Positions 1 through 9,655 of a stretch of DNA of 9,655 nt are shown here, piece by piece. The first letter of the stretch is position 1; every line of letters begins with the position of its first letter. A program made the position numbers and the translations under genes. Where the stretch lies: IMG/VR virus record IMGVR_UViG_2645727635_000010; one strand, given 5' to 3'. The DNA is from a virus. Its lineage: Duplodnaviria > Heunggongvirae > Uroviricota > Caudoviricetes. The notes under the pieces were generated by a model. The model ran no database searches. It saw only the letters and a list, made by a program, of their open reading frames with translations, and was not told where the DNA came from.

Positions 1-96
1 ATCATCTGTTCTCCAATGACTAGTCTAAAAACTAGTATTAAGACTATCACTTATTTAAGTGATATTGGTTGTCTGGAGATTCAGGGGGCCAGTCTA
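1..96 (-). mobile_element. IS2 (IS3 family) left terminus: inverted repeat plus leader, with the transposase orfA start codon at 3..5; the element continues beyond the window start
   Basis: Seen in sequence: the reverse complement of 1..96 reads TAGACTGGCCCCCTGAATCTCCAGACAACCAATATCACTTAAATAAGTGATAGTCTTAATACTAGTTTTTAGACTAGTCATTGGAGAACAGATGAT. From memory this matches the left end of E. coli IS2 up to the orfA start (ATGATTGATG...). The stretch is AT-rich compared with the flanking phage DNA. Not verified by search. Confidence 0.8.
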
Positions 97-260
97 ATGG
101 ACGGGCGGAAAGTGACTTTTCCCAGATCTTCGGTATAGGGTTTGTCGCGGTTCGGGTATTCATGTGTTTCCACACGGCGACCGGTTCCCGCACTTTCTTC
201 TTCAACCTTAAACGGCACACCTCGAAATGACGCATCCTGAAGCCTGTCTTTCCACGTCAT
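97..260 (-). pseudogene. 5' fragment of a DNA circulation protein gene (phage Mu gpN-like), truncated by the IS2 insertion
   Basis: Translation from the ATG at 258..260 gives MTWKDRLQDASFRGVPFKVEEESAGTGRRVETHEYPNRDKPYTEDLGKVTFRPS. The W-x-D-R-L-Q-x-A-S-F-R-G-V-x-F and HEYP-x-RD-x-PY-x-EDLG pattern recalls the N-terminal domain of Mu N-type proteins. A GGAG Shine-Dalgarno lies 5 nt upstream. The frame runs into the IS2 end and stops at 81..83. The listed ORF 81..266 starts at an upstream GTG. Confidence 0.6.
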
Positions 261-270
261 ATACACTCCG

Positions 271-301
271 AAAATAAAAAAGCCACCTATTAGAAGGTGG
301 C
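271..301 (-). terminator. Rho-independent terminator downstream of the 322..852 gene
   Basis: On the minus strand: 6-bp GC stem GCCACC/GGTGGC (282..287 pairs with 296..301), 8-nt loop, then TTTTTTATTTT (271..281). It lies about 20 nt past the stop of the 322..852 CDS. Confidence 0.7.
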
Positions 302-321
302 CTTGTAATGAATTTTATTAA

Positions 322-852
322 TTAGCGAGTCAGAAACAACGAATCTTTATACTTTTGCTGTTGTTCATTTAAATACTTAGCTGTTTCATCGCTGGCAAAT
401 GGAAATATTACCGTATTTTTAGGCATGGTAATTTCTTTTTTGTCCAGCGTCAGAGTAAACATAGGAACATACTGAGCAGAGTAACGCACCGCAGAAACGA
501 GCTCTAGTTTAGACTCTTCAATAACACTTAAATTATCCAGGCTAACTTTCTCTTCATCTTTTTTCTTTGACGCATTTAAAGTTTTTATTACTTTATTTAA
601 TTTCTCCTGAAAATCCTCCTTAAAGTTTTCAGGATTGCCGTCGACAACAAGAATCTGTTCACCCTGATTATCTGGAAAAATAATCTTTGCACTTATCAAT
701 TTATTTTCTTTATAAACATCACCAAGTTTTATGGCTCCTCCAGATAACTGAATAATATGTTCATCTTTAAAGGAGATGTTGCCAGAGATTATGAGAGATG
801 AAAAAATAGCCGCTGCTCCAAGAATTACACTTGCTGTGATATAGCCTTTCAT
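322..852 (-). CDS. Hypothetical signal-anchored or secreted protein, 176 aa; AT-rich single-gene insert (moron) between the tape measure and gpN-like genes
   Basis: Intact ORF with stop at 322..324. N-terminal hydrophobic segment MKGYITASVILGAAAIFSSLIISG followed by a K/E/D/N-rich hydrophilic domain; no cysteine, so not a lipoprotein. The DNA is visibly AT-rich by eye, roughly one third GC against well over half for the neighbouring structural genes. It has its own promoter-like sequence upstream and a terminator downstream. No family recognised. Confidence 0.7.
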   Translation of the reverse strand: MKGYITASVILGAAAIFSSLIISGNISFKDEHIIQLSGGAIKLGDVYKENKLISAKIIFPDNQGEQILVVDGNPENFKEDFQEKLNKVIKTLNASKKKDEEKVSLDNLSVIEESKLELVSAVRYSAQYVPMFTLTLDKKEITMPKNTVIFPFASDETAKYLNEQQQKYKDSLFLTR

Positions 853-887
853 TTTTCGCCTATTAACATTTTTCTAAATGTGCATTA

Positions 888-915
888 ATTCTATCACTCT
901 ATTTATGACTTACAA
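888..915 (-). promoter_or_regulatory. Candidate sigma70 promoter for the 322..852 gene
   Basis: On the minus strand: -35 TTGTAA (910..915), 16-nt spacer, extended -10 TGaTAGAAT (888..896), about 35 nt upstream of the ATG at 850..852, in the intergenic region after the tape measure stop. Sequence-pattern prediction only. Confidence 0.35.
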
Positions 916-943
916 CCAGCAATACATGTGAGGGGAATCCTGG

Positions 944-2776
944 CTACCAAAATCGGGTATAGCCAACATCGTGATTTATATCAATGCCACTGGAGCGTGT
1001 TTCCGTAACCCGCATACCTGATGGCATATTTATAAATGATACCTTGATCTCACCATCAACTTTTGGCGCGGTAGCTTTATTAATCATGAAGGGATTCGAG
1101 CCTGTGGCATCGGAGGCGTTGTTTGCCTGAGCCGGATCCACCGCCGGATAAGGAGTGTATCCCCGCGCCGGTATTCCCGTCCCATAAGCATCATAAGCAC
1201 CCGCGCCCCACTGCGCAGAGTTAATGGCATCGACCGTGTCACCGGAACTGTCGGTAAACCACTCAATAATTGGCTTCAGCTTGTCCCACATATCCTGAAA
1301 CCACTTAACAACCGGCCCCCAGTTATTGATCACCATCCCCAGCGGCGACCAGGCAAAAACCTTCTTAAGAAGTTCCCAACCAGCCTCAAAATAAGGACCA
1401 ATGGTTTCCCAGAGCTTCTTAAAATAAGGTCCGACAACATCCCAGTTAGTGATAATTAATCCCGCAGCCAGAGCAATCGCCGTCGCAATCATGCCAATCG
1501 GCGTCATCGACATAATCCTGCTGACAATACTGATGGCACCGCCAACGCCCATCAATCCCAGTTTCAGAATCGCAAGACCGGCAGCAAGCCCGACGACGCC
1601 GCGAATAACCCGGGGATTTTCATCCGCAAACTTCGTGAATTTTTCCCCCAACACCCCCAGCCATTGCGTGATATTTTTAGCGTCACCAGAAAATGCGCCG
1701 CCAATAGCAGCAAGACCGTTAGTTGCGGTCCCCGTCATTGCCTCCCACAGGTTGGACAGCGTACCAAGCTGAGCCTGAACACGTTTATTCAGGCTGGCCT
1801 GTTTATTCATCTTCTGCTGGATCTGATCGTAGCCATCCTTTCCTTTATCGATCAGGGCATTGACCACCTGAAGGGTTTCGGCATCATCACCAAATATTGC
1901 CTTAAGTACACCTGTTCGCTTAACGTCGGTCAGTTTTCGCAACTTTGCCAGTTGCCTGAACATGTTATCAAGACCGCCAAAACTTCCTTTGCCGTCAGTA
2001 AAATCGAGCTGTACCCCGAGTTTCTGGCGGGCCATGACTTTATTGACGTCCCTGATTTTCTTAACACTTAATCCGGACTGGATAACTTTTCGCAGGGCAT
2101 TACCTGCCGACTCCCCGTTCATCCCCATCTGATCCATCATGACGCTGATGGGGGCAAGGCTCTGTGCAGCCTGAAGACCGTCCTTGTTCACCATCTTCAG
2201 AACAGAACTGGTTTTAGTGAAGAAGGACAACATGTTGGTATCGTCAACGCCCAGATAAAACGCCTTCTGGATAGTGTCGAACAGCCCCATCATGTCTTCT
2301 GACGCCGTTCCGGTAGCATCCTGCATCTTTGCCGCAAACTCAGCAGCCGCTTCCGGTGTTTTTTTCAGTTGTACCGCAAGATAAGCTGTCGCTTTACCCA
2401 CACCACCAAGAATGTTTTCTGCCGGGATCCCCTGACGCACCAGCATCTGCATCATGTTCTGGAAATCAGCCGTTGTACCGGGTAGCTGGTTACCCAGGCC
2501 AATAGCCAGTTTATTGATGTCCTGAAAGCGCTTTCCAACCTCACCGTTCGCATCCATCATGGCAACTTTCAGCCCGGTAGCGGCGTTTTCCTGATCGGCA
2601 TAAGATTTCAGGGAAAGCGTCAGACCCGCAGCCAGTCCGCCACCAAGCGCCAGCCCACCCTGTGACGCTTCTTCCGCCTGGCGTTTAAATCCCCGGATTT
2701 TCTTTTGCATTTTCGACAGCGCGGGAGAAAGCCTGTCGACACCGGTGATCAACGCCTTAAGCTCAAATTCAGCCAT
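944..2776 (-). CDS. Phage tail tape measure protein, 610 aa
   Basis: Long ORF directly downstream of the chaperone/frameshift pair. The N-terminus is charged and helical, the middle is rich in Ala/Gly/Met/Gln, and the C-terminus has Gly-rich hydrophobic segments and W-rich repeats, as in tape measure proteins. Start at 2774..2776 overlaps the end of the frameshift ORF. Confidence 0.9.
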   Translation of the reverse strand: MAEFELKALITGVDRLSPALSKMQKKIRGFKRQAEEASQGGLALGGGLAAGLTLSLKSYADQENAATGLKVAMMDANGEVGKRFQDINKLAIGLGNQLPGTTADFQNMMQMLVRQGIPAENILGGVGKATAYLAVQLKKTPEAAAEFAAKMQDATGTASEDMMGLFDTIQKAFYLGVDDTNMLSFFTKTSSVLKMVNKDGLQAAQSLAPISVMMDQMGMNGESAGNALRKVIQSGLSVKKIRDVNKVMARQKLGVQLDFTDGKGSFGGLDNMFRQLAKLRKLTDVKRTGVLKAIFGDDAETLQVVNALIDKGKDGYDQIQQKMNKQASLNKRVQAQLGTLSNLWEAMTGTATNGLAAIGGAFSGDAKNITQWLGVLGEKFTKFADENPRVIRGVVGLAAGLAILKLGLMGVGGAISIVSRIMSMTPIGMIATAIALAAGLIITNWDVVGPYFKKLWETIGPYFEAGWELLKKVFAWSPLGMVINNWGPVVKWFQDMWDKLKPIIEWFTDSSGDTVDAINSAQWGAGAYDAYGTGIPARGYTPYPAVDPAQANNASDATGSNPFMINKATAPKVDGEIKVSFINMPSGMRVTETRSSGIDINHDVGYTRFW

Positions 2777-2951
2777 GTGTGCGTTTCTCCTGCTCTATCC
2801 TGTTTGCCTGACTGACCAGCAAGGGAATTTCACTGATCGGCATATTCAGCAATTCGAAGGGATTAATGCGCCAGTAGCTGGCGCAGTCAAAGAAGCGATC
2901 AGTGAGGTATTCAGCCGTCAGGCCTGGAGGAAAAAACCAGCCACAAGCCAC
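2769..2951 (-). CDS. -1 frame extension of the tail assembly chaperone (gpGT-like frameshift product; fused span would be 2769..3187)
   Basis: This ORF is in the -1 frame relative to the chaperone and overlaps both the chaperone 3' end and the tape measure start. The minus-strand slippery heptamer T-TTT-TTC (plus-strand GAAAAAA at 2930..2936) sits in the overlap. A -1 slip there would give ...AGFF followed by PPGLTAEYL...RTHG. Confidence 0.7.
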   Translation of the reverse strand: MACGWFFPPGLTAEYLTDRFFDCASYWRINPFELLNMPISEIPLLVSQANRIEQEKRTHG

Positions 2952-3187
2952 GCCGCAGCATTCAGGTCTGCCGGAGACATCTGGTCGACAGAGCTTTGCG
3001 GCACTTTCGCCAGCCGCACAATGTATTTCGACACCACATGCGCCAGAAGTCTGACGGACTCATCCTGATTCATCTGGTAGGGATACCCCAGCTCGCGGAC
3101 ATCTTTCCCGGTGGGCTCATCAAACTCCAGTACGGAGAGTGTCTCGCCATGAGCGGTAATCGGTTTCTTTAACTCAAGCTCTTTCAT
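2918..3187 (-). CDS. Tail assembly chaperone (lambda gpG analogue), 89 aa
   Basis: Small acidic ORF between the tail tube and tape measure genes, the conserved position of the chaperone. Its start overlaps the tube stop (TAATG). The slippery heptamer sits 5 codons before its stop. Confidence 0.8.
   Translation of the reverse strand: MKELELKKPITAHGETLSVLEFDEPTGKDVRELGYPYQMNQDESVRLLAHVVSKYIVRLAKVPQSSVDQMSPADLNAAAWLVAGFFLQA
2930..2936 (-). promoter_or_regulatory. Programmed -1 ribosomal frameshift slippery site (T TTT TTC)
   Basis: X-XXY-YYZ heptamer in the zero frame of the chaperone, located in the overlap with the -1 frame ORF. Conserved chaperone frameshifting ahead of the tape measure gene is established for long-tailed phages. 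Confidence 0.6.
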
Positions 3188-3543
3188 TACTGGTAATCCC
3201 CTTCTTCACCGTGGAACTCAAGATCAACCGTCCCTTCTTCGGCATTATGGTTCGCTTCGCCGTGCAGCCAGGCAGACGACAGTACATAGACCTGACCGTT
3301 CGCCAGCTCGGCAGTGATGGTCATCTCATCAGACGAGGTGATTTTGCTCACCGGAAAATTCTTCGGCACCTTGAAGGTCCCTTTGACATAAGGCGCACGG
3401 TGAGTTTCCTTGCGGTCCACTGAACCGTCCAGGCCGATGATGTCATCATTGACCGTCCTGTTCATGGGCACCTCAATGCCGCCGGTCAGCGATAGCTGCT
3501 GACCGTCAATTTTGAAATAACAGGTTCCCCCGATACGGGCCAT
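3187..3543 (-). CDS. Contractile-tail tube protein (Mu gpM-like), 118 aa
   Basis: Small ORF immediately downstream of the sheath gene with a TAATG stop/start overlap at both ends. Size and position are typical of myovirus tube proteins. Confidence 0.85.
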   Translation of the reverse strand: MARIGGTCYFKIDGQQLSLTGGIEVPMNRTVNDDIIGLDGSVDRKETHRAPYVKGTFKVPKNFPVSKITSSDEMTITAELANGQVYVLSSAWLHGEANHNAEEGTVDLEFHGEEGDYQ

Positions 3544-5039
3544 TATGCGGACTCCTCTGAATACTGAAGACGGAACTGGTTAACCACGGCAAAGACACGC
3601 AACTGGTTAACATAGTCAGGCGGGAACAGCGTGTTCAGGCGGTTCGGATCGCTGGCATCACGCTCCACAACCAGGTACTGCTTAAACAGTGCGTAGTTTT
3701 CCACGATCCCCGCACGCTCAAGCTGACGGTAGGTTGCCAGCAGTTCCCCTTTGATCACCGCCGGGGTGACAATCGCCTGACCGGGACCAAAGCGGGTACC
3801 GTCACTGGCAAGCTTGTGACGCCCGTACTTACTGGTAATGACGGATTTCAGTTTGCGCAGTACATACGCACTGGTATGCAGAGTCTCACTGTCGAGGTAG
3901 CTGTTATCCGCAACCCCGTAAGCATTTTTCCTGTACGTGGTGACATCACGCTGAATGCGCAGCACCCCGCTTTCGACATACGCCGTTGCCACGCCATGAG
4001 ACAGCAGGGTCTGTTGTTCGGTCATCGTGAACCGTTTCCCCTTCGGCGCAGGCAGCATACCCACCAGCTCACCGGTCTGCGTGGGACGTGCCGGATCGTT
4101 GCGAATAAACACCGCTGCGCGGGCGGTACGGCTTGCCGCCAGTTCGTCGGCAGGCGTCTGGGTCTCTTTTTCGTACCCCGCCAGGGTAATGTGCTGCTGG
4201 TTAAACTGGTCACCTGCGGTCACCAGTTCTGACAGCGTGCCGATCTTTGCCGTATACACATGACCATACAGCTGACGCGCATAGCTCCAGCGACCGCTGG
4301 TATCGTTCATCTCGGTCACCAGCGTGTTAACGGAGGCCGTGTCGTTGAACGGAAGACCGATATAATCAAACGGCTCATCCGCCATTGCAGCCACCGCGCC
4401 GGTGAGAACAGGAGCCCCCGTTCCGGCGGTCCCCGCCGCCACGGCAATCTGTACGCCCGCAGGCAGCACTTCGCCCCCACCAAAGCCGTAGTAATTGAGG
4501 CTGACAGGAATTTCATTCCCGCAAAGCCCCTTATGACGCGCGGTCAGCGTGACCACGCCAGCCGAAGATGAGGCCGTAAACGGCAGGGCCGGAACGGCAT
4601 TAATGGCATCCTGGATACTGCCGGCAATCGTCGCGACGTTATCGCCATTGGTCACCGGTGCCTGCACGCGGGTACGTCCCACATAAACATTCACCGTGCC
4701 GGTTTCGGTTGCCGCCCCGGTCACCGTCAGCGTAACCGTTGCCGCCGCGCCTGTGGCTTCCGGAACGGCAATCACATACAGCTCGCCAAACGGGTCAGTC
4801 TGGCGATAAGCCTCGACCATACGCGCCAGCTGACTTCCCGCACCACAAATCTGGCGTGCATAGTCTGCCGACGGCATCAGTACCAGACTGTTGGCAACAA
4901 TCTCTGCACCGTTATTGGCATGACCAATCAGCAGCGATGCTCCGCTGTCCTGTGCAGTATTCGCCGCCGAGTTATCCATTTCCGCATAAAACAACGGAAC
5001 CAGCGTATTCGACGGAATGGTGTTAAAGCTTATCGTCAT
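3543..5039 (-). CDS. Contractile-tail sheath protein (Mu gpL-like), 498 aa
   Basis: 498-aa ORF directly upstream of the tube gene with an AGGTG Shine-Dalgarno. It is Ala/Gly/Thr/Val-rich, and its size and N-terminus (MTISFNTIPSNTLVPLFYAEMDNS) are consistent with Mu/SfV-type sheath proteins. Confidence 0.9.
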   Translation of the reverse strand: MTISFNTIPSNTLVPLFYAEMDNSAANTAQDSGASLLIGHANNGAEIVANSLVLMPSADYARQICGAGSQLARMVEAYRQTDPFGELYVIAVPEATGAAATVTLTVTGAATETGTVNVYVGRTRVQAPVTNGDNVATIAGSIQDAINAVPALPFTASSSAGVVTLTARHKGLCGNEIPVSLNYYGFGGGEVLPAGVQIAVAAGTAGTGAPVLTGAVAAMADEPFDYIGLPFNDTASVNTLVTEMNDTSGRWSYARQLYGHVYTAKIGTLSELVTAGDQFNQQHITLAGYEKETQTPADELAASRTARAAVFIRNDPARPTQTGELVGMLPAPKGKRFTMTEQQTLLSHGVATAYVESGVLRIQRDVTTYRKNAYGVADNSYLDSETLHTSAYVLRKLKSVITSKYGRHKLASDGTRFGPGQAIVTPAVIKGELLATYRQLERAGIVENYALFKQYLVVERDASDPNRLNTLFPPDYVNQLRVFAVVNQFRLQYSEESA

Positions 5040-5193
5040 CGGTATTCACCTTTTTATTCACGCGCCGGATATCACCCGCGGCTTCACGGCGCAGCCAGTA
5101 GTTGTTCTCGTCAACATTTCGCCCTTCGGCGGGCAAAAGGTCGCCGCGGGCAGGGTCAGGAACTGACCGCCCTTTAACAGGTTTCACAAACAT
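5023..5193 (-). CDS. Small conserved phage protein (DUF2635-like), 56 aa; absent from the ORF track because it is under 60 aa
   Basis: Hand translation of the minus strand from the ATG at 5191..5193 gives MFVKPVKGRSVPDPARGDLLPAEGRNVDENNYWLRREAAGDIRRVNKKVNTDDDKL, with stop at 5023..5025. A GAGGA Shine-Dalgarno sits 5 nt upstream and overlaps the stop of the preceding gene. The 3' end overlaps the sheath start by 17 nt. The family assignment is from memory of a small protein found upstream of sheath genes in Mu-like prophages. Confidence 0.55.
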   Translation of the reverse strand: MFVKPVKGRSVPDPARGDLLPAEGRNVDENNYWLRREAAGDIRRVNKKVNTDDDKL

Positions 5194-5201
5194 GAGGATC
5201 C

Positions 5202-5762
5202 TCAGGAAGGAAGGGTTATTTCGGTGTGATGTTCGATATCGCCGTCAGGCCCGTTACCGGGCTCGAGATAATCAACATCAATCGCCAGCGTTTGCAGTTC
5301 ATCCAGACTGTTCAGATCATCCTGCTGGCGGGTATCGTCTTCAGTCAGCTCGCTGATGACCGAAAAATCGAACTGATAAATCAGCTCATGACGATTCAGA
5401 TCCAGCAGCGTGCCGCCGTCATAGGTAATCGGGTTACCGCACGCCTCCGGGTTCCAGCCCAGCAGAGCCTTAAAGAGCATCTGCCGGACATCGTCCACCA
5501 CATCATACGAGGCAAACTGACCGCGCTCATCACGCCCGTTACTCAGTATGACAACCACGGAGAAACCCTCTTTCAGCTCCTGCCAGTAGTCGGTCTGGCT
5601 TTTGTTTTCTCCCGGAGAATCATCACCCGGTACAACATACGCCGCCGGGAGTCTCAGCTTTCCGACCTCCGGCAGATTTTTGAACTGGGCCGCGCCTGCA
5701 ACCCGGTTTTCAAAATACGGACAGCGGGCACGCAGCGCAGCAATAACAGGCGTCAGTTTCAT
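5202..5762 (-). CDS. Tail completion / tail terminator protein (Mu gp37-like), 186 aa
   Basis: ORF between the neck genes and the sheath gene. Its start overlaps the upstream stop (ATGA). Function is inferred mainly from position and size; the sequence match is a weak recollection. Confidence 0.65.
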   Translation of the reverse strand: MKLTPVIAALRARCPYFENRVAGAAQFKNLPEVGKLRLPAAYVVPGDDSPGENKSQTDYWQELKEGFSVVVILSNGRDERGQFASYDVVDDVRQMLFKALLGWNPEACGNPITYDGGTLLDLNRHELIYQFDFSVISELTEDDTRQQDDLNSLDELQTLAIDVDYLEPGNGPDGDIEHHTEITLPS

Positions 5763-6265
5763 CTGTGTCGTCGCTCCGGCCTCAGTGATTTACGCAATTC
5801 CCGCGCCAGAAAATAGCGTGTCCAGCTGCGGTTCTTTTCAAGAGTTTCCACCATAAAGTTATTACGTGGAGCCAGTCGCCAGCCGCTGCCACCGGATGCA
5901 CCACGATGATGACTACGACGACGCTTTGCTCCTCCCCGGACACCAAAAAACAGAAACGCCGGATAGAAGTCACCAGAGATCATCCGGTTCCCCTTCCCGT
6001 TGCGCTGGTTAGGGGCAATGCGTGTCATAAAACCGGCTCGCTTTTTACTGGCTCTCGGCACCATGTAACCAATCGAACGAGCCAGGCGTCCGGTCTGATA
6101 ACCGGGGTTTTCACCCGGTGCCGACCGCGCACGGCGCATCACCAGCCGACGGGCATCACGCATATGACGCTGCCCAATCGTGACAAACGCCCGCCGGACA
6201 CGGGCACGGTTAAAGCGCATCTCCGCGGGCTGCTGAACATCAACGTGAAAAAAGGGAGTCGCCAT
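5759..6265 (-). CDS. HK97 gp10-like neck / virion morphogenesis protein, 168 aa
   Basis: Very basic, Arg-rich ORF between the adaptor and tail completion genes. GGAGG Shine-Dalgarno 5 nt upstream of the ATG at 6263..6265. Start overlaps the adaptor 3' end by 26 nt. Confidence 0.65.
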   Translation of the reverse strand: MATPFFHVDVQQPAEMRFNRARVRRAFVTIGQRHMRDARRLVMRRARSAPGENPGYQTGRLARSIGYMVPRASKKRAGFMTRIAPNQRNGKGNRMISGDFYPAFLFFGVRGGAKRRRSHHRGASGGSGWRLAPRNNFMVETLEKNRSWTRYFLARELRKSLRPERRHR

Positions 6266-6650
6266 TGCTGCCTCCGTGACTCTGCCTAAATTCGCCCAGC
6301 TCCGTACACTCCAGCAGCAGAAAGCGCCGCGCCCCGTTCAGATCACGCTGACGTTTCACCCGGTACACACTGTCACCACAGACCACCTCATAATCAGCGG
6401 TGATCCCCCGGCGGTAACGAATGGTGATGTAATGGGTGATGGCGTCCCCGGTCTGCGCGGTTTCCTGCCAGGTGGTGGCACTGGTCTGGATAACCTTCGC
6501 CCATGTCCGGAACGTAACCGGGTATTGAGGCTCCACGCCAAAGTTATCCGCGGGCATATCCACCCGCTGGCGGATCAGGACGCGTTTATTCAGTTCACCG
6601 GGGTCCGGCAGAATGTAGGTTGCGCTGGTCTGCGCCTGACGAATTTTCAT
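6240..6650 (-). CDS. Head-tail adaptor / head closure protein, 136 aa
   Basis: Position after the connector gene and the motif TAQTGDAITHYITIRYRRGI are typical of head-tail joining proteins. Start overlaps the connector stop (ATGA). Confidence 0.75.
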   Translation of the reverse strand: MKIRQAQTSATYILPDPGELNKRVLIRQRVDMPADNFGVEPQYPVTFRTWAKVIQTSATTWQETAQTGDAITHYITIRYRRGITADYEVVCGDSVYRVKRQRDLNGARRFLLLECTELGEFRQSHGGSNGDSLFSR

Positions 6651-6970
6651 TGCGGAAAGTACCTGTACGGGCCGACAAGCCAGCCAAAACTCTGCGGCAT
6701 GTCGAGTTTCTCCACTTCCGTAACCGACGAGCGGTTTTCGTAAAAATGGCTGATAAGCATCAGCATCCCCAGACGAATATCATCCGGCAGGTGCAGCCCG
6801 TCCGGATCGCTGTCCGGAATGGTTTCATCCGGTGCATAGAGCTTCCGGTTCAGATACGTTTCCGTCCGCTTTTGTGCCGCACAGGCCAGCAGTTGCAGAT
6901 GGCGGTCATCAGCATCGAAATCCTCATCCAGCCGGAGTTGGGCTTTAATCTCTTCCATTGTCAGAAGCAT
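6647..6970 (-). CDS. Head-tail connector protein (gp6-like), 107 aa
   Basis: The N-terminus MLLTMEEIKAQLRLDEDFDADDRHLQLL and the size are characteristic of gp6-like connector proteins, which sit after the major capsid gene. Confidence 0.8.
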   Translation of the reverse strand: MLLTMEEIKAQLRLDEDFDADDRHLQLLACAAQKRTETYLNRKLYAPDETIPDSDPDGLHLPDDIRLGMLMLISHFYENRSSVTEVEKLDMPQSFGWLVGPYRYFPQ

Positions 6971-6972
6971 AC

Positions 6973-7173
6973 TCAGCCCTCTTTACTGGTCGTGGCTTTT
7001 TTCTCTTTTGCCGCTTTACTGCTTTTTGCACTGATTCCGCGCTCTGCTAACCCGGCCTGAAGTGCAATCTCCTGCACCCGGGCAGGAAGCGCCCCGTCGT
7101 CATACTCACCGGCCCGAATGACCTCAACACGCATACCGTCCGGTGACCATTTCAGATCTTGTTTCAGGATCAT
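6973..7173 (-). CDS. Small hypothetical head-module protein, 66 aa, with a Lys/Ser-rich C-terminus
   Basis: ORF between the capsid and connector genes in the same orientation, with a GGTGA-like Shine-Dalgarno upstream. No family recognised; the call rests on position and coding appearance. Confidence 0.5.
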   Translation of the reverse strand: MILKQDLKWSPDGMRVEVIRAGEYDDGALPARVQEIALQAGLAERGISAKSSKAAKEKKATTSKEG

Positions 7174-7195
7174 GATTCTTCACCCGTCAGAACAG

Positions 7196-7215
7196 GGGGC
7201 GCGGTTCCGCGCCCC
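7196..7215 (-). terminator. GC-rich hairpin just downstream of the major capsid gene; possible partial terminator or mRNA-stabilising structure
   Basis: 8-bp perfect GC stem (7196..7203 pairs with 7208..7215, GGGGCGCG/CGCGCCCC) with loop GTTC, 8 nt past the capsid stop at 7223..7225. No U-tract follows on the minus strand, so it is not a canonical intrinsic terminator. Confidence 0.35.
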
Positions 7216-7222
7216 TGAGTGA

Positions 7223-8428
7223 TTACGCCACTGCAATCTTCAGCAGTTTGATGGCCTGCGAATCGACCAGCATCCCGCCGGTGCGCTTGGTGGTATAAAA
7301 ACCGACAAACGGTTTATTGGTGTACGGGTCACGCAGAATGCGGGGGCCGATACGGTCAACGATGGTGTAACCCCGTTTGAAGTTACCAAATGCAATGGCT
7401 TTCGCATCAGCGGCGATATCCGGCATCTGTTCGTTTTCAGCGATACCGTAACCCGCCAGAGAGGACGGCTGCCCCAGCTCCAGCCCCGGACGCCACAGAT
7501 AGTTACCCTCGATGTCTTTAAGCAGACGGATGGCAAACAGGCTATTGTTGTTCATCATGAACTTCGCGCCAGTGCGGTGTGCCTTACGCAGCGTGTAAAT
7601 CAGTTTGATAATGGCGTCTGCGGTCACCGCAGTCGCGTCGCCGGATACAATATGCTGAAGTTTGCCGAACGCCCGGACCTTATCGGTTTCATCCGTGGAT
7701 TCATACGCCAGGAACCCTTTCGGCTTCTTGGTACCATCGCCGGTGGTAAAGGCAATTTCTTCCTGTTCGGCAAATTCGGTTGCCAGCTCGCTGTTGATCC
7801 ATGCTTCCACGTTGAAAAAGGCATCATCCAGCATTTTCTGGGTGGCCTGCGGGTTACCGTAGATTTCCCCCATGAAAGGTTCAATCAGGCCCAGTTTTGA
7901 GGTGGCAGTCTGGGAGCGCGCGTCAGTCTCACCAACCCATCCGGAAGCCGTGCCGCCCAGATTCACCAGTTTTTTGTAGTCGGAACCACCAACGGTGATC
8001 ACCGTGGCTTCCTGGCGCATCACCACTTCATCTTTCAGCAGGGTGAGAATGTTGCGATCCAGTGCTTCCGGCACGGCATAGCCGCCGTCTTCATCGGTGC
8101 CCACCTGCAATGCCTTGCGCTCCAGATCGCGCAGACCATCTTCACGGCCTTTACGCAGGAAGCCCACAAACGCTTCTTTATGCTCAGTGGCCAGTTTATT
8201 TTGCGCACCACCTGCCGGACGTTTCAGCTCAAGCAGCTCTTTTTCAAGATCGCTTTTGAGGTTTTCCAGCTCGCTGAGTTTCCCGTTCAGGGTTTCCACC
8301 TGCCCGGCAAGTTTGCCTTTTTCCTGCTCAATCGCATCCACGCGCTTGTCGTTCTTTGCTTTGAAGTCGTCAAACTTCTGCTGCAGCTCCTGCGCGACCT
8401 GTTCGACATCTTTAATATCAACCGCCAT
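7223..8428 (-). CDS. Major capsid protein, HK97 fold, with an N-terminal coiled-coil delta (scaffolding) domain, 401 aa
   Basis: The first ~100 aa are strongly charged and helical (MAVDIKDVEQVAQELQQKFDDFKAKNDKRVDAIEQEKGKLAGQVETLNGKLSELENLKSDLEKELLELK), followed by a body typical of HK97-family capsid proteins. AGGAGA Shine-Dalgarno upstream. The gene directly follows the prohead protease. Confidence 0.92.
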   Translation of the reverse strand: MAVDIKDVEQVAQELQQKFDDFKAKNDKRVDAIEQEKGKLAGQVETLNGKLSELENLKSDLEKELLELKRPAGGAQNKLATEHKEAFVGFLRKGREDGLRDLERKALQVGTDEDGGYAVPEALDRNILTLLKDEVVMRQEATVITVGGSDYKKLVNLGGTASGWVGETDARSQTATSKLGLIEPFMGEIYGNPQATQKMLDDAFFNVEAWINSELATEFAEQEEIAFTTGDGTKKPKGFLAYESTDETDKVRAFGKLQHIVSGDATAVTADAIIKLIYTLRKAHRTGAKFMMNNNSLFAIRLLKDIEGNYLWRPGLELGQPSSLAGYGIAENEQMPDIAADAKAIAFGNFKRGYTIVDRIGPRILRDPYTNKPFVGFYTTKRTGGMLVDSQAIKLLKIAVA

Positions 8429-8442
8429 CGTATTTCTCCTGA

Positions 8443-8592
8443 TTAGAAGTTCAGATTTTTCAGTGCATTCAGTGCAGAGCCCACATCCTCAGCGTCGCGC
8501 AGGGACAGTGCGCCATAGCCCCCGGCCATGAATGCTTTGGCCTGGGTACGGGAGAGTCCGACATCACGCAGGACTCTTTCGATTTTTTTCTG
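8443..8592 (-). other. In-frame continuation of the protease reading frame after the TAA at 8593..8595 (49 codons); likely the C-terminal segment of an ancestral full-length protease
   Basis: Hand translation in the same frame as the protease gives QKKIERVLRDVGLSRTQAKAFMAGGYGALSLRDAEDVGSALNALKNLNF, ending at TAA 8443..8445. Protease plus extension is about 215 codons, close to the usual length of HK97-family proteases. Confidence 0.5.
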
Positions 8593-9093
8593 TTAGGGGA
8601 TTTCCCCGCGGGCCAGTGCGTTCTTGACGTCGCTGATCCGCGCCTCGTCGTTAGACGGGAACGTCACCAGGCTGACTTCCCAGAGGTCGATTTCTTTCAG
8701 CAGAAAGGCTTCTTTGCTCCGGTCGTATTCCCAGTCTTTCAGGACGTACCCAATAGAAAGGCCGGTTAACGAACCGGCCTTCATGTGTGCATGTGCGCGT
8801 TTTGCGAGGGGATCATCATCAATAAGCAACCGTCCCCTGACGTAAAGCCCGACATCGTCTTCCTTCATTTCAGTGTAAACACCGATGGGTTCATCCATGC
8901 GGTGCTGCCAGAGCAGCGCAGGTAACGCTTTTCTGTCACTCCACGCCCGCAGGGAAGCAGCAAATGCCCCGGACATCACCACATCATCGTGGCTGTCCTT
9001 TACACCAAAGACGGAGCCATACCCTTCAAACTCACCGGAGTCACTGACAGATTTCAGACTCAGCGGTACATCAAGACGTTGTTTCGTCTGCAT
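8593..9093 (-). CDS. Prohead maturation protease (HK97 family), ending at an in-frame TAA; the likely start is the ATG at 9091..9093 rather than the listed 9129
   Basis: The motif EGYGSVFGVKDSHDDVVMSGAFAASL is typical of HK97-family prohead proteases. The ATG at 9091..9093 has an AAGGA Shine-Dalgarno 8 nt upstream; the ATG at 9127..9129 has none and would overlap the portal gene by 59 nt. Confidence 0.8.
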   Translation of the reverse strand: MQTKQRLDVPLSLKSVSDSGEFEGYGSVFGVKDSHDDVVMSGAFAASLRAWSDRKALPALLWQHRMDEPIGVYTEMKEDDVGLYVRGRLLIDDDPLAKRAHAHMKAGSLTGLSIGYVLKDWEYDRSKEAFLLKEIDLWEVSLVTFPSNDEARISDVKNALARGEIP

Positions 9094-9655
9094 TGGCGTT
9101 ATCCTTCTGCTTACCGGCTTTACTGCCATCGGAGGGTTCCGTGGTCATGTTCATCGGTGTGAGATAGACATCACCACCGGGACGCGGATTCATATCTTCC
9201 AGGTCGCGGCAGTCATTGGGAGAGTAAATTCCCCAGTTAATCCCGGTGGCGTAGGCTTCAAAACGGGACTTCATATCCCCGCGCAGTAACGCCCCGGCGT
9301 TAAATTTGGCGTAATAAACGCCCTGCTTACTTTTTCGTACCAGTCCGGTGTTGATCCGCTGCTCAATGCGGGTCAGATACGGCACCAGTGAATAGTTGAT
9401 AAATCCCAGCCCCAGCTCTTCGATATTGTTGAAGGTGGCGCGATCGGTGTTCTGCACCATGTGCAACGGCACCCGGAACAGACGACAGATTTCTTCAAGC
9501 TGAAACTTGCGGGTTTCCAGGAACTGGCTGTCCTCGGCGTTCAGCGCCATCGACTTCCAGTCCAGCCCCATCTCAAGGATCATCGGGCGGTGAGCATTGC
9601 CAAGCCCGGTGTGACGCTCCTCAAAATCTTTCTTCAGGCGCTCATAAGCCTGATC
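9071..9655 (-). CDS. Portal protein (HK97 family), C-terminal part; the 5' end lies beyond the window
   Basis: The frame stays open from the listed ATG at 9583 to the window edge (hand translation of 9584..9655 continues upstream as DQAYERLKKDFEERHTGLGNAHRP). Stop at 9071..9073. Its position directly upstream of the protease and capsid genes matches HK97-type head modules. Confidence 0.85.
   Translation of the reverse strand, partial: DQAYERLKKDFEERHTGLGNAHRPMILEMGLDWKSMALNAEDSQFLETRKFQLEEICRLFRVPLHMVQNTDRATFNNIEELGLGFINYSLVPYLTRIEQRINTGLVRKSKQGVYYAKFNAGALLRGDMKSRFEAYATGINWGIYSPNDCRDLEDMNPRPGGDVYLTPMNMTTEPSDGSKAGKQKDNANADETTS

Follow-up and report, generated by a model that had tools for sequence, protein, structure and literature searches.

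The 'window', as the term is used here, is the whole of the stretch of DNA that was analysed, i.e., the entire 9,655-bp draft contig JHRD01000098.1 (assembly GCA_001265315.1), which ends within a copy of IS2. All of its genes are carried on the minus strand, and together they make up the head-to-tail late region of a prophage. In order, they are a partial portal gene, a prohead protease, a major capsid protein, connector and head-closure proteins, a tail terminator, a DUF2635 protein, sheath, tube, tail assembly chaperone, and a tape measure of 610 aa. After the tape measure there is a 176-aa AT-rich ORF and then a gpN-like gene, this latter being the gene that runs into the IS2 copy. Intact relatives display the order tape measure, 176-aa ORF, gpN-like gene, baseplate hub gpP, gp45, gp46, J, gp48, tail fibre, and Pin, that is, in L001 (CP098211) and L006 (CP034784) Mu-type baseplate genes, tail fibres, and the Pin invertase continue downstream, as they do in e14.

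Read codon by codon against L006, all of the window's genes are intact and collinear save for a nonsense codon in the protease gene (and the gene that IS2 cuts). From base 97 to base 9655, the window matches E. coli prophages at up to 98.5% identity over the full length of 9,559 bases and with no indels. Judged from its sequence, the prophage is of the SfV/SfI/SfII/e14-like kind, with an HK97-type head and a Mu-type contractile tail, and the Pfam content of the called genes agrees with an SfV/e14-like assignment. Coordinates are collected in Table 1.

Table 1. Features of the 9,655-bp window, with position, strand, and basis of the call
Feature	Position	Strand	Basis
IS2 left end, first 96 bp	1..96	-	identity to L007; element runs on past window position 1
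IS2 orfA ribosome-binding site GGAG (window 14-11) and ATG (window 5-3)	3..14	-	
OrfA operator (IS2 bp 39-48) and weak extended -10 promoter PIRL (TGATAGTCT, IS2 bp 48-56)	41..58	-	
IS2 left inverted repeat IRL, 42 bp, TAGACTGG...	55..96	-	read directly; identical to IS2 bp 1-42
Truncated fusion ORF, 59 aa: 54 phage codons, Ile (split codon), RLAP from IS2, TGA 83-81	81..260	-	translation
Predicted 5-bp target site, atgga (+) / TCCAT (gene orientation)	97..101	.	inferred from duplication GGGAC at the reference IS2
gpN/gp43-like tail-tube initiator ('DNA circularization protein'), 5' 164 nt (codons 1-54 plus 2 nt)	97..260	-	collinear with the 442-aa gene of L001 and L006
Intrinsic-terminator-like hairpin closing the moron, 18 nt before the gpN-like start	279..304	-	terminator scan: 10-bp stem, 5 GC pairs, T-run
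176-aa AT-rich ORF (32-36% GC) between tape-measure and tube-initiator genes	322-852	-	
Promoter-like site of the 176-aa ORF	915-888	-	
TAA nonsense codon of the prohead protease (GAA in relatives), E167*	8593..8595	-	codon comparison with L006 and direct read

An earlier note, made from the letters alone, had taken the first 96 bases to be, on the minus strand, the left terminus of IS2, including the orfA start codon. That identification is borne out, as window 1-96, once reverse-complemented, agrees at 96/96 positions with IS2 bases 1-96 of a reference copy. The reference in this case is L007 1501-2831, which is 1,331 bp long, carries the annotation 'IS3-like element IS2 family transposase', and is flanked by the 5-bp duplication GGGAC. 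BLAST with the same 96 bases, which had likewise been proposed, returned 7,210 E. coli records matching over at least 80% of the length (best E = 4e-42), thousands of them with an IS2 transposase annotation, a match which, as alignment statistics go, can be placed far above chance expectation. The IRL of IS2 is 42 bp in length (PMC3299598). Positions of the OrfA operator and of PIRL were taken from the same source (PMC3299598) and converted as window = 97 - IS2 bp, with the TGAT of PIRL, at IS2 bp 48-51, confirmed in the sequence at window 49-46. The orfA ATG corresponds to IS2 bp 92-94, and the annotated transposase CDS of the reference begins at L007 1592, i.e., at IS2 bp 92. The transposase genes of IS2 are co-directional with the phage late genes. 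A sister contig with the same junction (L005) extends 206 nt into IS2, reaching into orfA, and there gives a weak match to PF01527 (HTH_Tnp_1).

The boundary between phage and IS2 lies exactly at 96/97: collinearity of the window with the intact relatives L001 and L006 starts at base 97, and at base 96 they no longer agree (a in the window, g in L006). The phage ORF thus meets the IS2 end just where the earlier note had placed the meeting. The other end of the ORF requires correction. The interval had been extended to 266, i.e., to a GTG, but in relatives the ORF starts with the ATG at window 260, which has a GGAG 5 nt upstream, and the GTG therefore is rejected as the start. The first T of IS2 supplies the last base of codon 55, such that Ile is retained, and Arg-Leu-Ala-Pro and then the TGA come after it. 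Interruption after about 55 codons with a stop a few codons on, as had been described, consequently holds up, the exact tally being 54 codons plus 2 nt, then four IS2 codons, then TGA. The resulting 59-aa product is identical on 4 contigs. What is left is a gene fragment, one from which the C-terminal domain is absent, ending as it does after 54 phage codons.

That the interrupted gene is a homologue of Mu gp43/N can be seen from several comparisons. The 59-aa product itself matches Pfam PF07157 (DNA_circ_N) with 59.4 bits against a cut-off of 21 (E = 5e-16), its residues 7-55 aligning to positions 2-50 of the 88 in that model, and an intact relative, P0031, reaches 113.8 bits over positions 2-88. 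With phmmer, residues 10-433 of the intact 442-aa relative align to residues 26-485 of PDB 9ki1, the solved 'DNA circularization protein N' of Mu (E = 6.3e-14), and with BLASTP there is 42% identity to Mup43 over 89 aa (E = 9e-17). The protein also matches PHROG 184, 'baseplate hub'. The position of the gene, between tape measure and baseplate hub gpP, is the same in L001, L006, and Mu, with the upstream neighbour being visible within the window. The gene's description as Mu gpN-like is upheld by the first three of these, that is, by PF07157 above its curated cut-off, by 9ki1, and by Mup43.

In Mu, gp43 is a hexameric tail-tube initiator which holds the baseplate wedges, as based on cryo-EM (PMC11915804). 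Tube assembly starts from a 24-stranded barrel made by its N-terminal, tube-like domain, and the wedges are clamped by its helix-rich C-terminal domain, of which a LysM module is part (PMC11915804). As gp43 is the tube initiator, and as the 59-aa product lacks the C-terminal domain entirely and retains only about half of the N-terminal one, a loss of tail assembly can soundly and reasonably be expected. Mu N amber mutants, in work by Grundy and Howe from 1985, reportedly are tail-less, a phenotype with which the expected loss of tail assembly would agree. The claim that the insertion should abolish tail assembly 'by itself' thus stands in part: it is reasonable given the role of gp43 and the extent of truncation, but the words 'by itself' overlook the nonsense codon in the protease gene.

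That nonsense codon leaves an HK97-type prohead protease of 166 aa instead of 216. It reads as a second inactivating lesion of the prophage, i.e., with its protease truncated the prophage would be defective also in head maturation. The same E167* is present in L022 (GCA_001265295.1), L023 (ENA ERZ28627441), and L025 (Logan SRR21136865). Separately, three other contigs have inserted sequence within the protease gene, directly after the palindrome GGGGAAATCCCC (L019 at 4850, L026 at 5443, and L027 at 4964), and in three more (L020, L021, and L024) the contig breaks in the protease gene after this palindrome. The L019 insert encodes a 413-aa DDE_Tnp_1 transposase, and L026 and L027 have related inserted ends with the transposase gene absent within the contig. 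The inserted end supplies an immediate TGA, giving rise to a 166-aa product that is the same as that resulting from the window's point nonsense codon, a coincidence seen upon exact-protein look-up.

The 176-aa ORF that lies just upstream of the gpN-like gene is kept in the intact relatives. Its N-terminus is hydrophobic-looking by eye, its only match is to PHROG 5485 (function unknown), and Pfam and PADLOC gave no match for it. As it possesses its own promoter-like site as well as an intrinsic terminator, this region (window 279-915) looks like a moron.

The best explanation overall, and one that we hold to be probable, is that IS2 transposed into the tube-initiator gene and that what remains is a tail-less, decaying prophage. 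That is, a resident IS2 copy would have transposed into the prophage's tail-tube initiator gene, this being the homologue of Mu gp43/N, with entry between gene nt 164 and 165, with the IS2 left end adjoining the 5' part of the gene, and with the transposase genes running in the direction of the late operon. Ribosomes on the phage gene would read 14 nt into IS2 and then stop, such that the product, 59 aa in length, would lack the wedge-clamping C-terminal domain, with about half of the N-terminal tube-like beta-barrel domain retained. With no functional tube initiator, no tail assembly is to be expected. The presence of 1.3 kb of IS2 within the operon should in addition lower expression, by polarity, of the downstream baseplate and tail-fibre genes. 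IS2 insertion and protease nonsense codon, taken together, would give a decaying and indeed non-inducible prophage.

Such an insertion predicts what should be present beyond position 1 of the window, namely a full-length IS2 followed by the 5-bp duplication and the remainder of the gene. The predicted far junction is the IS2 right end (…GGGGCAAATCCA) joined to TCCATCAC(A/G)GCTTATGTGG, and then the baseplate genes. Patterns built on the ACG allele of L006 gave 0 matches to this junction in GTDB representatives and JGI metagenomes, patterns which could miss true far junctions as the closest relatives carry ACA, and an allele-independent pattern gave 0 matches in JGI metagenomes and IMG/VR. BLAST with a synthetic far junction (IS2 right end plus TCCAT plus gene) against 5,426 complete E. 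coli genomes returned no record spanning both halves.

The far side may also be considered in terms of protein. The IS2 right end in L007 (IS2 bp 1305-1331) reads TAA CAG ATG TCT GGA AAT ATA GGG GCA AAT CCA. Its ATG, given the TCCAT duplication, is in frame with codon 54 onward, with the consequence of a predicted, N-terminally truncated ORF of 398 aa. The product would be MSGNIGANP plus residues 54-442, and by eye its ATG has no obvious Shine-Dalgarno. A homology search turned up no cluster representative of this 398-aa fusion, and exact look-up of eight of its alleles found it to be absent from a collection of 15 billion proteins. The only 398-aa match, P0041, is rejected as the far-side fusion, as it stems from unrelated defects, one a deletion in L008 and the other a nonsense mutation in L009. 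Also rejected as the far side are the 384-aa truncations P0136 and P0137, which have a GTG start at codon 59 and come from other defective prophages. Among the places listed for these two, none is in the three assemblies with the IS2 junction, with one being ERZ28621960 (MUNK18-1), and 0/11 of the mapped junctions of 384-aa truncations have IS2 upstream. A cluster of 273 'partial' N-terminal fragments was considered as possible marks of IS insertion and then set aside: their sequences continue like the intact gene and they thus are ordinary contig ends.

An alternative is that the junction is the border of an IS2-associated rearrangement rather than of a simple insertion, whether an adjacent deletion, as generated by intramolecular IS2 transposition, or instead a deletion or inversion that resulted from recombination between two IS2 copies. 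The remainder of the gene, along with the baseplate and fibre genes, would then be absent or found elsewhere in the chromosome. This is unlikely, if still worth serious consideration. Absence of the far side from the collections searched speaks for a rearrangement, though that absence carries little weight, as the remaining contigs of the draft source assemblies lay outside of the collections that were scanned. The substrates for recombination are many, with E. coli genomes having a median of 3 and a maximum of 41 matches to the IS2 left end, and related prophages very often are internally deleted at the tube-initiator gene. Against these points, IS2 transposition most often yields simple insertion. 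A simple insertion, as judged against an IS2-bounded deletion or rearrangement, thus is the likely event.

A second breakpoint is found within the same gene. Six contigs from different samples (L008, L012, L014, L015, L017, and L018) break within the tube-initiator gene at nt 125-128, all six junctions falling within 4 nt, with the 384-aa remainder of the gene identical and with six different sequences upstream. The upstream partner in L008 is the tail-chaperone region (confirmed against L001), in L012 it is a putative short ORF where the sheath gene normally sits, in L018 it is an IS3-family end, at codon 42, and in another of the six it is DNA near an integrase gene. The pattern fits nested deletions with one end fixed at an IS site, that is, IS-excision-linked deletion, or instead ascertainment bias. 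A Pin-type invertase pseudo-site was rejected as the cause of this breakpoint, with the partners, upon our own reading, being without half-site similarity. It strikes us as improbable that prophages in E. coli are recurrently inactivated within the 5' approximately 60 codons of the tube-initiator gene. The idea may find its basis in IS2 at codon 55 in the window's lineage, the IS3-family element at codon 42 (L018), and five deletions of differing extent that end within 4 nt of this second site, with chance plus ascertainment as the alternative. If true, it would imply either a target hot spot plus IS-excision-linked deletion or, instead, selection for disarming of the tail while keeping other prophage genes.

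The earlier note had also supposed a 'strong IS2 outward/inward promoter context' that could alter expression of neighbouring genes, and this is not supported here: the resident left-end promoter, PIRL, is weak, OrfA-repressed, and inward-facing. In the integrated element PIRL is the sole promoter of the left end, with a weak extended -10, subject to repression by OrfA, and reading into the element (PMC3299598). The strong promoter, Pjunc, forms only in the excised minicircle, where both ends abut (PMC3299598). Within the window PIRL points into IS2, i.e., away from the window's phage genes, and a consensus scan found no promoter-like site in window 1-266. As all of the window's phage genes are upstream of IS2, which is co-directional with the operon, they are unaffected by the insertion. 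The plausible effect of IS2 on expression is polarity on the downstream baseplate and fibre genes.

IS2 serving here as a mobile promoter, altering expression of neighbouring phage genes, is highly improbable, the window holding the left end, with PIRL its only promoter, and its genes all lying upstream. The right end is the place from which such an effect might come, as Jaurin and Normark, in 1983, are said to have described an outward -35-like hexamer at that end which can form hybrid promoters. At the predicted far junction, by eye, the hexamers found 16-18 bp past the -35-like TGGAAA are TCCATC, CCATCA, and CATCAC, none of which is TATAAT-like. The same right-end hexamer also forms Pjunc in the minicircle (PMC3299598).

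The junction itself recurs. An identical 60-nt junction is found in the NCBI assemblies GCA_001265395.1 and GCA_001265765.1 as well as in the ENA metagenome scaffold ERZ28627441, with the length of IS2 attached across copies being 85, 94, 96, and 206 nt. The lineage with this junction is rare, consisting of three draft assemblies and one metagenome. IS2 is found at the window's site in 0/5,426 complete E. coli genomes, and an exact-pattern scan for the near junction gave 0 matches in GTDB representative genomes and IMG/VR. Assemblers break contigs at repeats, and the window is a whole contig with its IS2 part at the very end, so the 96 IS2 bases could be imagined as a chimeric contig end made by the repeat, with no IS2 at this site in the genome, but the junction is the same base for base in three genomes that were assembled independently and in one metagenome scaffold, with differing lengths of IS2, and falls exactly at the canonical IS2 terminus, such that an assembly artefact is effectively refuted.

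In the 1 kb that adjoins the junction, copies display 0-2 mismatches. Farther upstream, those copies that share the junction diverge by at most 1.3%, e.g., L003 has 57 differing positions versus window 522-4482, clustered in the tape-measure and sheath genes, and L004 has 5 versus window 264-1154. This upstream divergence implies that recombination took place in the history of the copies or, with lower probability, that IS2 inserted more than once at the same site. The simplest reading is of one insertion, with later recombination with related prophages.

Though real, the insertion of IS2 into a tail gene of this prophage is an ordinary occurrence, with both its parts and the phenomenon already known. 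That prophages of E. coli and Shigella decay through the disruption of their structural genes by IS elements is well known. Importance outside of annotation is small. For annotation, window 97-260 is a pseudogene fragment disrupted by IS2, the prophage is to be scored as defective, with two lesions within the window, and the contig end reflects an assembly that broke within a repeat. A contig that terminates in an IS says nothing on what adjoins the other side of the element.

In terms of known systems, the insertion is of IS2 (IS3 family, E. coli), of which the window holds IRL, the OrfA operator, PIRL, and the orfA RBS plus ATG, all 100% identical. This represents 96 bp out of the 1,331 bp of a full element and, of orfA, just the ATG plus 2 nt, with the remainder of the transposase genes, and any right end and target duplication, to be expected outside of the window. 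For the interrupted gene, the known system is Mu gp43/N, with which the window's relatives share the PF07157 N-terminal domain, similarity over the whole length, and place in the gene order. Mu gp43 is 495 aa in length versus 442 aa in the intact relatives, however, with good alignment in the first approximately 90 residues only (42% identity). In the window's relatives, in contrast to Mu, the 176-aa AT-rich moron separates the gpN-like gene from the tape-measure gene, and the window's copy is cut after codon 54.

For the prophage as a whole, SfV, SfI, SfII, and SfIV, along with the e14-like prophages of E. coli, are the closest phage systems, with those of S. flexneri being serotype-converting. 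None of these (SfI/SfII/SfIV/SfV or e14-like prophages) has IS2 at the window's site. The Shigella phages SfI and SfII, compared with window 97-9655, display 97% identity over 92% of the query, with the same gene order, and the ymfQ, tfaE, and pinE of e14 are present also in the window's relatives.
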